A program made the translations under genes and the position numbers. Below are positions 18,407 through 26,611 of a DNA stretch of 49,246 bases, piece by piece; position 1 is the stretch's first letter; every line of letters starts with the position of its first letter. The stretch is from a virus (taxonomy: Duplodnaviria > Heunggongvirae > Uroviricota > Caudoviricetes): the IMG/VR virus record IMGVR_UViG_637000105_000003. One strand, written 5' to 3'. The notes beneath the pieces are model-generated. The model worked only from the letters and a program-made list of their open reading frames with translations. It had not been told where the DNA came from and did not search any database.

Positions 18407-18497
18407 CCATCTACATCACTGAGCTAATAACAGGCCTGCAGGTTGAACCGCCCCGGGAATCCTGGAGACTAAACTTCCTGAGAAAGAGGTAAACAGG

Positions 18498-18824
18498 ATG
18501 ACTAAAAATACTCGTTTTTCCCCCGAAGTCCGTCAACGGGCAGTCCGTATGGTTCTGGAAAGTCAGAGCGAATATGACTCACAATGGGCGACAATTTGTT
18601 CCATTGCTCCAAAGATTGGCTGTACGCCGGAGACTCTGCGTGTCTGGGTTCGCCAGCATGAGCGGGATACCGGGGGCGGTGATGGAGGGCTCACCACCGC
18701 TGAACGTCAGCGTCTGAAAGAGCTGGAACGTGAAAATCGTGAACTGCGCCGCAGTAACGATATCCTTCGCCAGGCTTCCGCTTATTTTGCGAAGGCGGAG
18801 TTCGACCGCCTCTGGAAAAAATGA
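18498..18824 (+). CDS. IS629 transposase OrfA
   Basis: Identical translation to 1287..1613. Confidence 0.9.
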
Positions 18825-19711
18825 TGCCACTGCTGGATAAGCTGCGTGAGCAGTACGGGGTCGGACCGCTATGCAGCGAACTGCATATTGCCCCGTCAAC
18901 GTATTACCACTGTCAGCAACAGCGACATCATCCGGATAAACGCAGTGCCCGTGCGCAGCGCGATGACTGGCTGAAGAAAGAGATACAGCGCGTATACGAT
19001 GAAAATCACAAGGTATACGGTGTGCGTAAAGTCTGGCGTCAGTTGTTACGGGAAGGTATCAGAGTGGCCAGATGCACTGTGGCACGTCTCATGGCGGTTA
19101 TGGGACTTGCCGGTGTTCTCCGGGGTAAAAAGGTCCGTACGACCATCAGCCGGAAAGCCGTTGCCGCAGGCGACCGCGTAAACCGTCAGTTCGTGGCAGA
19201 ACGACCTGACCAGCTGTGGGTGGCTGATTTTACTTACGTCAGCACATGGCGGGGCTTCGTCTATGTGGCGTTCATCATTGATGTGTTTGCCGGATACATC
19301 GTGGGGTGGCGGGTCTCATCGTCCATGGAAACGACATTCGTGCTGGATGCACTGGAGCAGGCGTTATGGGCCCGTCGACCGTCCGGCACGGTCCATCACA
19401 GTGATAAAGGTTCTCAGTATGTATCGCTGGCCTACACACAGCGGCTTAAGGAAGCCGGATTACTGGCATCAACAGGAAGTACAGGCGACTCGTATGACAA
19501 CGCGATGGCGGAGAGCATCAATGGTCTTTACAAAGCGGAGGTAATACACCGTAAGAGCTGGAAAAACCGTGCAGAAGTGGAACTGGCCACACTCACGTGG
19601 GTGGACTGGTATAACAATCGACGATTGCTGGAAAGGCTGGGCCATACTCCTCCGGCAGAAGCAGAAAAAGCTTATTATGCTTCCATCGGAAACGATGATC
19701 TGGCAGCCTGA
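18821..19711 (+). CDS. IS629 transposase OrfB
   Basis: Identical translation to 1610..2500. Confidence 0.9.
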
Positions 19712-19792
19712 GTTCACAGATAAAACACTCTCCAGGAAACCCGGGGCGGTTCAGGTAATCGCAGGCCTTTTTATTTGGGGGAGAGGGAAGTC

Positions 19793-22065: not shown

Positions 22066-22449
22066 ATGCGTGATATTCAGATGGTTCTTGAGCGTTGGGG
22101 TGCGTGGGCGGCTAATAATCATGAAGATGTGACCTGGTCGTCCATTGCCGCCGGTTTTAAGGGATTAATTCCTTCAAAAGTAAAATCTCGCCCGCAATGT
22201 TGTGACGATGACGCGATGATCATTTGCGGGTGCATGGCCCGTCTGAAAAAGAACAACAGCGATTTACACGATTTATTAGTAGATTATTATGTATGTGGTA
22301 TGACATTCATGTCACTGGCAAGTAAGCATTGCTGCTCGGATGGTTATATCGGGAAAAGGTTACAGAAGGCTGAGGGCATAATTGAAGGGATGTTAATGGC
22401 ATTAGATATCCGGTTAGATATGGATATCGTTGCTAATAATTCTAATTGA
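22066..22449 (+). CDS. Q: Late gene antiterminator Q (short phage 82 / DLP12 quuD-type, ~127 aa)
   Basis: [31 protein letters not shown]...; Cys-rich zinc-binding region; placement before lysis cassette. Confidence 0.75.
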
Positions 22450-22586
22450 TATGCAATTGTTTACTAAAAGTTATTAAAAATGGGGCGTGGAAACGCCCCC
22501 AAAATAAAGGGTAATATATAACAGAAGGTTTATATAGTAAGAAGCAAGGTAGTGCTTCTAAAGGAAGTGGCTTGAGGGCTCCACTT

Positions 22587-22627
22587 ATATGTTGCGGAGG
22601 CAAAGCCTCCCGCAACATATCTTTTTC
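22587..22627 (+). terminator. Rho-independent terminator (long GC stem then T-run), plus-strand; also faces the convergent porin gene end
   Basis: ATATGTTGCGGAGGC...GCCTCCCGCAACATAT stem followed by CTTTTTCG. Confidence 0.5.
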
Positions 22628-22637
22628 GTAAGTCAGA

Positions 22638-23720
22638 TTAGAACTGATAAACCAGACCTACAGCGACGATGTCGTCGGTATCAATACCAGCTGTTTTGGT
22701 AAACTTACTATCGTCAATTAAGTTGATTTTGTAATCAACAAAAGTGGACATGTTTTTATTAAAGTAGTAAGTAGCACCGACATCGACATACTTGACTAAG
22801 TCTCGGTCACCATGAACACCAAGGTCTTTACCTTTTGACTGAAGGTAAGCAACAGATGGACGCAGACCGAAGTCAAACTGATATTGTGCTACTGCTTCAA
22901 AGTTTTGTGCTTTGTTTGCAATATGGTTATTACCAAAAACGGTCATATTCTGAGTTTCAGAATATGTGGTAGCCAGATAGATATTGTTCGCATCATATTT
23001 CAGGCCTGCAGCCCATACTTCCGCATTTTTGCCGGAGGCATTGAATTTGCTCTTACCATAGGCGACCTGACCGTCAGTGCGATCTGATTTAGCATAGGTT
23101 GCACCCACGCCGAATCCTTCATACTCATAAGTAGTGGAGAAACCGAAACCATCACCATTGGCTTCAGTTACGTCAGTGCGGTCATTTTTACCCTGATACT
23201 GAGCAGCAAAGTTCAGGCCATCGACCAGACCAAAGAAGTCGTTGTTACGATAAGTTGCAACACCAGTAGTGCGACCAGTCATGAACACATCTGTTTGGGT
23301 CCAGGTATCACCACCGAATTCTGGCAGAACGTCAGTCCACGCACCGATGTCGTATGCTACACCGTAGTTACGGCCGTAATCGATTGAGCCGTAATCACCA
23401 AATTTCAGGCCTGCAAATGCAAGACGGGTTTTGTCTTTGGAAGAACCTTGAGATTCAGCACGGTTGCCTTTGAATTCATATTCCCACTGACCGAAACCAG
23501 TCAGTTGATCGTTGATTTGGGTTTCACCTTTGAAGCCAAGACGGGCATAAGTAGTATCACCATCATCTGCATCATTAGAGGAGAAGTAGTGCTTGGCATT
23601 AACTTTCCCGTATAGATCCAGCTTGTTACTGTCTTTATTATAAATTTCAGCTGCCTGAGCAGACATCGCCATCAGTACTGATGCAGCTACAGCAGAAATT
23701 GCCACTGTTAATTTTTTCAT
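22638..23720 (-). CDS. Outer-membrane general porin (OmpC/OmpF/NmpC family), prophage-encoded moron
   Basis: 360 aa with signal peptide [23 protein letters not shown] and C-terminal ...GLVYQF beta-barrel signature; opposite strand to late operon. Confidence 0.85.
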
Positions 23721-24146
23721 TGTACGCCCTTTTTTTGAACTTTTATTAAAAAATGATGTCACTGCGCGATAAATATTCATCTAATCAATGTGATTATTTC
23801 AAGATGTAAGTTTTAGTTTCTCATTTAATTTGTGAAGTAGATCTCTATTTTTATCTGAACCTTTTCTATCTAATCCTATTCATGGCTCTTGTCTGAACAA
23901 AAATAAATCTATTAGCTAATTTATATTAATGGCACTTATTTATAAGTGCTCTATAATTCTTTAGCTTAATTTAAACAAACTAAAAATAACATCGGAAATT
24001 ATTAACTGGTTATTTGTTGAAGTTTTCTTATGCATTTGTGGTGGTGTTTTGAACACTCGGTGGCATTCTCACAAATATCATTTAGTAGTTTACGTACGTA
24101 AAAAATTGGTTATGCTGTTAAGAGTGGTTACTTCGTCACACAGCTT

Positions 24147-24180
24147 AAACCCGCCGTCGAGCGGGTTTTTCCATTTTTTG
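24147..24180 (+). terminator. Rho-independent terminator upstream of the lysis cassette (tR'-like)
   Basis: Stem ACCCGC/GCGGGT with 6-nt loop followed by TTTTTCCATTTTTT. Confidence 0.55.
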
Positions 24181-24308
24181 AGTCTCGATATTAGCTGATA
24201 ACCCAATACCTGAGTTATTCACTGACTCCGAATCTGTTACGTTTCTGCCTTTATTGCGATACGTAGTATCCCCTTAATTTACACCCGCTTTGTCTGCGAG
24301 GTGGGGTT

Positions 24309-24524
24309 ATGAAATCCATGGATAAGTTAACAACGGGTGTCGCCTATGGTACCTCAGCAGGTAGTGCCGGGTACTGGTTTTTACAGTTGCTCGATAAAGT
24401 CACGCCCTCACAGTGGGCGGCAATAGGTGTGCTGGGTAGCCTGGTATTTGGCCTGCTGACGTACCTGACAAACCTTTATTTCAAGATTAAAGAAGATAAG
24501 CGCAAGGCTGCGAGAGGTGAATAA
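24309..24524 (+). CDS. S: Holin (phage 21 S-type class II pinholin)
   Basis: 71 aa with two TM segments and charged C-terminus; S21-like by recollection. Confidence 0.8.
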
Positions 24525-25021
24525 TGCCTCCATCATTACGAAAAGCCGTTGCTGCTGCTATTGGTGGCGGAGCAATTGCTATAGCATCAGTGTTAATCAC
24601 TGGCCCAAGTGGTAACGATGGTCTGGAAGGTGTCAGCTACATACCATACAAAGATATTGTTGGTGTATGGACTGTATGTCACGGGCATACAGGAAAAGAC
24701 ATCATGCTCGGTAAAACGTATACCAAAGCAGAATGCAAAGCCCTCCTGAATAAAGACCTTGCCACGGTCGCCAGACAAATTAACCCGTACATCAAAGTCG
24801 ATATACCGGAAACAATGCGCGGCGCTCTTTACTCATTCGTTTACAACGTGGGTGCTGGCAATTTCAGAACATCGACGCTTCTTCGCAAAATAAACCAGGG
24901 CGATATCAAAGGCGCATGTGATCAGCTACGTCGCTGGACATATGCTGGCGGTAAGCAATGGAAAGGTCTCATGACTCGTCGTGAGATTGAGCGTGAAATC
25001 TGTTTGTGGGGTCAGCAATGA
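24524..25021 (+). CDS. R: SAR endolysin (lysozyme, phage 21 R-type)
   Basis: N-terminal Gly/Ala-rich signal-anchor-release segment [18 protein letters not shown] followed by lysozyme domain. Confidence 0.85.
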
Positions 25022-25479
25022 ACAGAGTAACCGCGATTATCTCCGCTCTGGTTATCTGCATCATCGTCTGCCTGTCATGGGCTGTTAATCATTACCGTGA
25101 TAACGCCATTACCTACAAAGCCCAGCGCGACAAAAATGCCAGAGAACTGACGCTGGCGAACGCGGCAATTACTGACATACAGATGCGTCAGCGTGATGTT
25201 GCTGCGCTCGATGCAAAATACACGAAGGAGTTAGCTGATGCGAAAGCTGAAAATGATGCTCTGCGTGATGATGTTGCCGCTGGTCGTCGTCGGTTGCACA
25301 TCAAAGCAGTCTGTCAGTCAGTGCGTGAAGCCACCACCGCCTCCGGCGTGGATAATGCAGCCTCCCCCCGACTGGCAGACACCGCTGAACGGGATTATTT
25401 CACCCTCAGAGAGAGGCTGATCACTATGCAAAAACAACTGGAAGGAACCCAGAAGTATATTAATGAGCAGTGCAGATAG
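25018..25479 (+). CDS. Rz: Rz i-spanin
   Basis: N-terminal TM then coiled-coil; embedded Rz1 in +1 frame. Confidence 0.8.
25238..25420 (+). CDS. Rz1: Rz1 o-spanin lipoprotein (embedded in Rz)
   Basis: Lipobox LVVVGC and proline-rich mature region [15 protein letters not shown]. Confidence 0.75.
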
Positions 25480-25510: not shown

Positions 25511-25804
25511 TTATTGTGAGCAATACACACGCGCTTCCAGCGGAGTATAAATGCCTAAAGTAATAAAACCGAGCAATCCATTTACGAATGTTTGCTGGGT
25601 TTCTGTTTTAACAACATTTTCTGCACCACCACAAATTTTTGCTGCATCGACAGTTTTCTTCTGCCCAATTCCCGAAACGAAGAAATGATGGGTGATGGTT
25701 TCCTTTGGTGTTACTGCTGTAGGTTTGTTTCCAACAGTAAACGTCTGTTGAGCACATCCTGTAATAAGCATTGCCAGAGCGGCAGAAAACAACATTTTTT
25801 TCAT
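25511..25804 (-). CDS. bor: Bor serum-resistance lipoprotein
   Basis: MKKMLFSAALAMLITGCAQQ... lambda Bor-like by recollection; lipobox. Confidence 0.85.
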   Translation of the reverse strand: MKKMLFSAALAMLITGCAQQTFTVGNKPTAVTPKETITHHFFVSGIGQKKTVDAAKICGGAENVVKTETQQTFVNGLLGFITLGIYTPLEARVYCSQ

Positions 25805-26284: not shown

Positions 26285-26611
26285 ATGAAAAGACGCCTTT
26301 TACTACTTTTTCTGTTATCTGTCCTGGCAGTGGGATGCTCGCAGCAAAAAGCTGATGAGCCCCGGCAATTAGTGACGGTGTATCCACGATATCCGGAATA
26401 TGCTGCAGCAAATTATATCAAGGGGCTGGTTGAGGTTAAGTTCGATATTGGTGCTGATGGGACTGTGACACGGATCGTTTTTCTCCGCTCAGAGCCTCAT
26501 AATTTGTTTCGTGATGAAGTGGTGAAGGCCATGGCGAAATGGCGATTTGAAAAGAATCGCCCCTGTCAGGGAGTGAAGAGACAATTTATCTTTACGCCGT
26601 CACGTCCTTGA
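26285..26611 (+). CDS. Lipoprotein with TonB C-terminal-like domain (108 aa)
   Basis: Lipobox LAVGCSQQ; YP...Y..A...G.EG.V.VKF.I..DG.V motif pattern resembling TonB_C. Confidence 0.6.
   Translation: MKRRLLLLFLLSVLAVGCSQQKADEPRQLVTVYPRYPEYAAANYIKGLVEVKFDIGADGTVTRIVFLRSEPHNLFRDEVVKAMAKWRFEKNRPCQGVKRQFIFTPSRP

Follow-up and report, generated by a model that had tools for sequence, protein, structure and literature searches.

A reverse-oriented NmpC/Lc-type porin cassette between gene Q and the putative late promoter pR' of a lambda-like Escherichia coli prophage

The window analysed here, the whole 49,246-nt stretch of viral record IMGVR_UViG_637000105_000003, is 99.95% identical over its full length to a lambda-like prophage of Escherichia coli CFT073, and carries a porin gene on the minus strand between the late antiterminator gene Q, which ends at 22449, and the holin gene, which starts at 24309 (Table 1). 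The longest open reading frame (ORF) in positions 22450..24308 is 22638..23780 (minus strand), and the start codon used in RefSeq and by the homologues, at 23720, gives a product of 360 aa. This product matches the Pfam family Porin_1 (PF00267) with an E value of 1.9e-151 along the entire model (positions 1-337 of 337), and the solved structures of OmpC, OmpK36 and OmpF align with it across the whole mature length, OmpC with an E value of about 1e-137. The translation contains a signal peptide, the PEFGG motif of the constriction loop and a C-terminal end (VGLVYQF) with the terminal Phe. The protein has the sequence characteristics of a general diffusion porin and, by homology, would form a 16-stranded, trimeric, solute-conducting barrel. 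RefSeq labels it as "porin OmpC"; it scores 521 bits against the NCBIfam "porin OmpC" model (cutoff 484), which is a subfamily model and the only one that it passes, its scores being below the equivalog cut-offs for both OmpF and PhoE.

The closest named relatives are Lc from phage PA-2 and NmpC from E. coli K-12, each with 91% protein identity. The differences from NmpC and Lc cluster at residues 181-187, 218-232, 263-267, 302-306 and 335-350, patches that we take, from the topology of OmpF and OmpC, to correspond approximately to surface loops L4-L8. An earlier reading of the stretch, made from its letters alone (the sequence-only reading), had proposed a complete OmpC/OmpF-family porin gene inserted as a moron, antisense and with its own regulatory region, between Q and the holin gene, had suggested a comparison with NmpC, and had named truncation of the ORF as a finding that would speak against it. 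The gene is real and complete, being unshortened with respect to its homologues (360 aa versus 365 aa for PA-2 Lc, with two short gaps, both in variable stretches). From its 91% identity to both proteins and its location on the opposite strand between Q and the S-R-Rz lysis genes, the element is the already known NmpC/Lc porin cassette of lambda-like E. coli prophages. The cassette is reportedly on record since the 1980s, with a 1985 account by Highton known to us through citation.

The same organization occurs in prophage DLP12 (qsr') of K-12, with the order rusA, ylcG, quuD, nmpC (reverse), essD, rrrD, rzpD and borD, conserved spacers on both sides of the porin gene, and the 91% protein identity extending over the 346 aa that precede the site of the insertion sequence (IS) IS5. 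The K-12 copy is split by IS5 after codon 346, whereas the copy here is intact; additionally, the two proteins differ in short patches (residues 181-187, 218-232, 263-267, 302-306 and 335-341), and 17 nt are missing from the S leader of K-12. Gene lc of PA-2 (protein 2, GenBank J02580) is in the same place and orientation beside the lysis genes, and the two phages are 89% identical in DNA over 2.1 kb, sharing the 3' untranslated region (3'UTR) of the porin gene and the upstream spacer, including the pR' block described below. Apart from the length of Lc and the same variable patches as in NmpC, PA-2 differs by a G-to-T mismatch in its counterpart of the hairpin at 24147, and lysogenic conversion (Lc up, OmpC down) has been shown for PA-2, whereas the prophage studied here is known from sequence. 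The chromosomal porins OmpC, OmpF and PhoE, as well as OmpD from Salmonella, share the full-length Pfam match, the PEFGG motif and the C-terminal Phe, but the porin here is prophage-borne and under its own regulation.

The cassette is widespread. More than 30 sequenced lambdoid phages share the segment from Q to S at 89-100% identity, among them PA-2 and 434B, the latter being a derivative of phage 434 that carries a DLP12 segment and has IS5 inside its porin gene. The complete 1859-nt stretch is 100% identical in E. coli CFT073, Nissle 1917 and ATCC 25922, the porin gene has 100% DNA identity also to that of phage ev017, and matching DNA was found in 3339 of 5426 complete E. coli genomes (>60%). 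CFT073 and most of the top matches contain a second place that matches the porin query; in the literature it bears the name c2348 and is co-induced at 37 °C.

Table 1. Position, strand and supporting evidence of the features of the porin region and of its neighbouring genes (coordinates are those of the window).
Feature	Position	Strand	Evidence or details
Late antiterminator Q (QuuD type, 933W Q family)	22066..22449	+	Pfam PF06530, E 7.7e-54; RefSeq quuD
Porin cassette, delimited by comparison (DNA absent between Q and pR' in 933W and Sakai Sp5)	~22426..24085	.	Alignment breaks
Porin 3'UTR, ~165 nt, structured, IpeX-like	22471..22637	-	Conservation and fold
Intrinsic terminator of the porin transcript	22474..22499	-	Terminator scan; stem 22482-22488/22493-22499, U run 22476-22480
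Porin gene (NmpC/Lc type), 360 aa	22638..23720	-	Pfam, NCBIfam, structure alignments, identity to Lc/NmpC
Porin promoter region, homologous to K-12 PnmpC	23721..23919	-	PMC11677980 and conservation
SigmaE-type promoter motif, divergent from the porin start codon	23737..23769	+	GAACTT 23737-23742, 16 nt, TCACT 23759-23763; +1 about 23769
Putative late promoter pR'	24089..24116	+	-35 TTTACG 24089-24094, 16-nt spacer, -10 TATGCT 24111-24116; predicted +1 A24123
Candidate tR', hairpin and T run	24147..24179	+	~25-57 nt past the predicted +1; homologous to the annotated 933W/phi24B terminator
Lysis cassette as a whole	24309..25479	+	Pfam and RefSeq
S21-type (P21 S) holin, essD	24309-24524	+	Pfam PF04971; RefSeq name
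Signal-arrest-release (SAR)-type lysozyme, rrrD	24524-25021	+	Pfam PF00959; RefSeq name
Rz/Rz1, rzpD	25018-25479	+	Pfam PF03245; RefSeq name

The position of the late promoter was examined by comparison with phages that have a Q protein of the same family. Q is identical in 97 of 120 aa (81%) to that of the Shiga toxin (Stx) phage 933W, and its homology with the Q genes of 933W, Lambda_2E9 and cdtI ends at 22425, the last position of codon 120, the seven remaining codons being particular to the porin-cassette junction. The DNA directly 3' of Q in 933W, phi24B and Sakai Sp5 is annotated as containing pR', qut and a terminator. In the window, similarity to the DNA that follows Q in 933W begins again at ca. 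24086, and positions 24086..24175 are homologous to the pR'-qut-terminator segment of 933W and phi24B. The end of homology at 22425 and the presence of the pR' block from 24086 onwards indicate that the porin cassette is inserted between Q and pR'.

The pR' motif occurs once in the window, compared to the 0.02 occurrences expected by chance, and is invariant across eight carriers except for one base of the -10 in PhiR29_1. Its -35 lies inside a 14-bp palindrome, TTTACGTACGTAAA (24089..24102), and its -10 is followed by the conserved start region TAAGAGTGGTTAC and then by a hairpin (24147..24168, -12 kcal/mol) with a T run that reaches 24179. The predicted +1 corresponds to position 577,229 (plus strand) of K-12 MG1655 (NC_000913.3). 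Sakai Sp5 contains the same promoter at L009 712-739, with a predicted +1 at 746 and the end of a second terminator at 1003; the resulting 258 nt equal the distance from PR' to tR' that was measured in Sakai by differential RNA sequencing (dRNA-seq) and Term-seq (PMC7547250). The window thus combines a Q of the 933W family with its cognate type of promoter, a conserved start region and an intrinsic terminator and, because the homology to the pR' block is found downstream of the porin gene, the hairpin at 24147 is a candidate for tR' situated just past pR', as in the ordinary lambdoid arrangement. By analogy with the dRNA-seq and Term-seq results from Sakai, transcription would start at pR' and Q would make it resistant to termination.

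The Stx phages 933W, Sakai Sp5 and phi24B (source of the StxS RNA) share with the window, besides the 81% identical Q, the palindromic -35, the start region and the first hairpin, and the position of the transcription start site (TSS) is supported by the Sakai dRNA-seq data. In these phages, pR' overlaps the end of Q, tRNA genes and stx are located downstream in the sense direction, and there is a second terminator at +258; here, instead, 1.66 kb of reverse-strand cargo separate Q from pR', and S follows after only 186 nt. The centre of the palindrome differs between phages yet stays symmetric, being TTTACGTACGTAAA here and TTTACGATCGTAAA in 933W and Sakai (L005 1204..1217), while Lambda_2E9 contains the imperfect version TTTACAATCGTAAA (L016 2382..2395), and cdtI, with a more distant Q, shares the start region and lacks the palindrome. 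This palindrome may serve to bind Q or a dimeric regulator.

The porin gene is flanked by transcription signals of its own. In K-12, promoter PnmpC is located within positions -199..-1 of the start codon, with a G as the TSS mapped by 5' rapid amplification of cDNA ends (5'RACE), and it is regulated by CRP, OmpR, IHF and MprA and strong enough to drive the IS5 transposase (PMC11677980). The homologous region is nearly invariant in eight carriers, and within it we predict an extended -10 (TGaAATAAT, 23793..23801) and a TSS at G23786, the hexamer and the exact start being predicted positions. This region is also AT-rich, as claimed in the sequence-only reading, with a GC content of 0.25-0.29 across 23700..24099, which takes in the 380 nt upstream of the porin gene, against about 0.45-0.50 in the flanks. 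Scans for a minus-strand promoter of consensus strength for the porin gene gave none. CRP sites are annotated in the 1986 PA-2 record, one of which overlaps the start region of pR' and has a half-site spacing of 8 nt, not 6 nt; these sites were not relied on.

At the other end, the terminator scan identified an intrinsic terminator for the porin transcript (fold of -13.8 kcal/mol, z-score -3.0), whose stem arms and U run are invariant in six carriers, with variation in the bases of the loop only. The hairpin of this terminator (22482..22499) had been missed previously, its T run being on the minus strand. The gene therefore possesses, as would be expected of a moron, its own minus-strand terminator and a promoter region homologous to the mapped PnmpC.

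A highly structured 3'UTR separates the porin stop codon from the terminator. The 188 nt from the Q stop codon to the porin stop codon are 94% conserved in six carriers, and the 3'UTR itself has 94% mean column identity in six carriers, K-12 and PA-2 included. On the minus strand it folds into a multi-hairpin structure with a minimum free energy of -53.6 kcal/mol (z-score -6.5), and 0 of 200 shuffled sequences were as good. Its first stem is hairpin 22587..22620 (-21.9 kcal/mol, z-score -5.8, 0 of 200 shuffles as good), which is followed on the plus strand by the T-rich tail TATCTTTTT. The hairpins starting at 22587 and 24147 had been put forward as plus-strand terminators that late transcription has to cross; both exist, but 22587..22620 belongs to the porin 3'UTR and, with its location upstream of pR', does not stand in the way of late transcription. 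Read in the plus direction, it may additionally terminate early transcripts that come from Q.

The RNA IpeX, from DLP12, is 167 nt long, is part of the porin transcript and controls OmpC (PMC12197685, PMC5069750); published statements describe it as a post-transcriptional repressor of ompC and ompF. The layout found here is that of a co-transcribed RNA of ~165 nt, compared to the 167 nt reported, bounded by the porin stop codon and a Rho-independent terminator, and its sequence is near-identical to those of K-12 and PA-2, the first two hairpins differing from those of K-12 by a few substitutions. By position and length, the 3'UTR fits the published description of IpeX, suggesting that it could have an IpeX-like function. 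An Rfam search at E <= 1, against a collection without a model for IpeX or for the pR' leader, produced only two matches, both at chance level (sau-19 and Trp leader).

These results make it quite probable that the porin gene forms part of a self-contained NmpC/Lc cassette located between Q and its cognate pR' and outside the late transcript. The reverse-oriented cassette, joined to Q right after codon 120, would be transcribed leftwards in the lysogen from its own promoter, yielding a general diffusion porin, and the structured 3'UTR of that transcript would supply an IpeX-type RNA lowering host OmpC and OmpF; this transcript would end at the minus-strand terminator just before Q. Late transcription would initiate at pR', to the right of the porin gene, where Q would act, and the Q-modified polymerase would override hairpin 24147..24179 to reach S-R-Rz and the head genes. 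With such a start, the porin gene would remain outside the Q-dependent late transcript, and it would be crossed in antisense only by early rightward transcripts proceeding past Q, either N-antiterminated or escaping the hairpin at 22587. The sequence-only reading had concluded that Q-modified transcription must traverse both hairpins and the porin gene in antisense; this is not supported, the 933W-type pR' block being located downstream of the porin gene, and late transcription most likely does not cross it. The additions to what was known are small, namely a corrected transcription map, with the porin between Q and pR', and the assignment of the "terminator" after Q to a putative IpeX-type RNA, and neither alters the current understanding of lambdoid phages.

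Several observations weigh against this interpretation. Promoter pR' is placed by homology only. Its hexamers match the consensus in 8 of 12 positions, a score also reached at 22511..22538, directly past Q; with equal scores, a promoter scan cannot separate a start after Q from a start downstream of the porin gene, and homology was used instead. The homologous first hairpin of Sakai does not stop the transcript, which continues to the second terminator, 258 nt from the start, and four carriers (PA-2, ev099, Turner and PhiR29_1) contain a G-to-T mismatch in the stem of the 24147-type hairpin. No second terminator was found before S in the window, where the hairpin at 24147 is the sole one of its kind, and these three facts together make its efficiency as tR' uncertain. 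The +1 given in the DLP12 literature (~23769, sigmaE-type) differs from that predicted for pR' (24123). The putative assignment to IpeX is based on position, length and secondary sources, and the correspondence of gene c1560 of CFT073 to the copy studied here is deduced from gene order.

Promoter scans, both with the consensus and with relaxed settings, gave 8/12 for pR' and for the porin promoter, the same as for chance matches after Q. The strongest match to the consensus on the plus strand (ATGGCA-17-TATAAT, 23929..23957, 10/12) was discarded; it falls where the spacer is least conserved, and the other carriers lack its -35.

The comparison with 933W bears directly on whether pR' could be located immediately after Q, within 22450..22637, so that the Q-modified polymerase would read through the hairpin at 22587, 1.1 kb of antisense porin sequence and the hairpin at 24147, also silencing the porin gene. 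Although pR' abuts Q in lambda and in 933W, and weak promoter-like hexamers (8/12) occur here at 22511..22538 and 22488..22517, the sequence past codon 120 does not resemble the pR' that goes with the related Q of 933W, and the homologous block is found at 24086..24175 only, as a single occurrence in the window. The hairpin at 22587, with its T-rich tail on the plus strand, would fit a terminator in such a leader, and a Q-modified polymerase is able in principle to cross the complete porin region; however, positions 22450..22637 are accounted for as the conserved, structured 3'UTR and terminator of the porin gene on the other strand, and cargo between Q and the promoter block is also present in other phages with the same Q family. 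The viability of 434B with IS5 in its porin gene argues neither for nor against a pR' located after Q, which on balance we regard as very unlikely. Another start site comes from work on DLP12, in which the nmpC-essD spacer is used as the regulatory region of the lysis operon, and an "SRRz promoter region -121 to +650" was cloned after Rueggeberg 2015 (PMC7918800). The primers of that study map to K-12 L002 4754 and ~5524 (771 nt), the reverse primer, printed with dropped letters, matching only with errors, and this places the +1 at L002 4875, equivalent to 23769 in the window, next to a motif of the sigmaE type (GAACTT-16-TCACT). Lysis and late genes might then be expressed mainly from this promoter, with Q acting on a leader of 540 nt from 23769 to S, which would contain pR' and its hairpin, rather than at a 933W-type pR', and the text of a review indeed places the cassette under both Q and RpoE. 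As far as established, the Q proteins of lambdoid phages (lambda, 82 and 21) load on a sigma70 complex paused at their own promoter. In the window, a conserved promoter block of the 933W type agrees with the PR' mapped in Sakai, and we consider expression mainly from sigmaE the least probable of the explanations examined. The sigmaE-type promoter and pR' are not mutually exclusive and, as both are located to the right of the porin ORF, the Q-modified polymerase need not cross the porin gene from either of them, so that the antisense model is not rescued.

It could also be that the porin gene, intact as it is, is a silent passenger that makes no contribution to the lysogen, being quiescent, for example, by H-NS silencing through its very AT-rich upstream region (25-29% GC). 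In cited titles and remarks, nmpC is called "quiescent" in E. coli B and is described as inactivated by IS5 in K-12, and the lack of a minus-strand promoter of consensus strength in the scans is in line with this; against it, transcription from PnmpC is detectable in K-12, with its TSS located by 5'RACE (PMC11677980), and the ORF, the 3'UTR and the promoter region are 89-100% conserved across many phages. In CFT073, both the RNA and the protein of nmpC are made, at higher levels at 37 °C than at 23 °C, and nmpC/c1560 and c2348 rank with the porins that show the strongest induction at 37 °C (PMC12890032). For uropathogenic E. coli, 89% of the isolates had NmpC in their outer-membrane proteomes. 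Absence of expression, which the sequence-only reading had offered as a refutation of its proposal, is thus at odds with the literature for both K-12 and CFT073, and a silent gene seems to us unlikely. The self-contained, expressed cassette is also compatible with the functional idea of that reading, an effect of the prophage porin on outer-membrane permeability and phage receptors, which is sound; the effect on other porins is the classical Lc/IpeX account (PMC12197685, PMC5069750). The cassette is among the oldest examples of lysogenic conversion, in which a prophage adds a porin while the RNA from its 3'UTR lowers those of the host, with consequences for permeability to antibiotics, surface antigens and phage receptors, and its carriers include the model uropathogen CFT073 and the probiotic strain Nissle 1917.

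The junction after codon 120 of Q is also occupied by other genes in related phages. The porin cassette is absent from 933W, Sakai and phi24B, where pR' abuts Q, whereas cdtI and Lambda_2E9 carry different cargo. In cdtI, Q is 49% identical and ends at the same codon, being followed by two reverse ORFs, one of them with a DUF6731 domain (L008 1012..2560), beyond which the start region and the hairpin are the same and the upstream half of the promoter differs. Lambda_2E9, with a related Q, contains a reverse gene for the lipocalin Blc and a forward gene with 2-thiouracil desulfurase and DUF1722 domains (L016 505..2410), and a TTTACA-16-TATGAT promoter with the same type of palindrome 1.9 kb downstream of Q. 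We incline slightly to the view that the point just past codon 120 of Q is, in phages with Q proteins of the 933W/QuuD family, a recurrent slot for cargo insulated from transcription of the late operon, mostly in reverse orientation and expressed in the lysogen, with Q acting up to 1.9 kb away from its gene, and that in porin carriers a single short hairpin, of a kind that is read through in Stx phages, is all that separates a constitutive pR' from the lysis genes.

Further features were observed around the lysis cassette. The Shine-Dalgarno region of the holin gene is spanned by a stem at 24283..24311 (ACCCGC.../...GGUGGGGU), and the product of this gene begins with M-K-S-M, the dual-start arrangement of class II S21-type holins. 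Just past the lysis cassette there is a reverse-strand gene for a Bor/Iss serum-survival lipoprotein (25511..25804) and, as an accessory gene near it, a gene for a small TonB-family protein on the plus strand (26285..26611).

Elsewhere in the window, two 100% identical copies of a 1310-nt element of the IS3 family are located at 1233..2542, where it splits the excisionase gene, and at 18444..19753, between ren and ninB, and ISEc10 (IS21 family) is inserted in an ea22-like gene (~5500..7760). Excision of the prophage is probably defective. With a view to possible self-exclusion, the tail-tip protein J was also compared; its C-terminal 250 aa (45794..46543, plus strand) are 100% identical to J from phage 21 and only 55-57% identical to those of lambda and 434, so that its receptor specificity would be that of phage 21, rather than that of PA-2 or 434.

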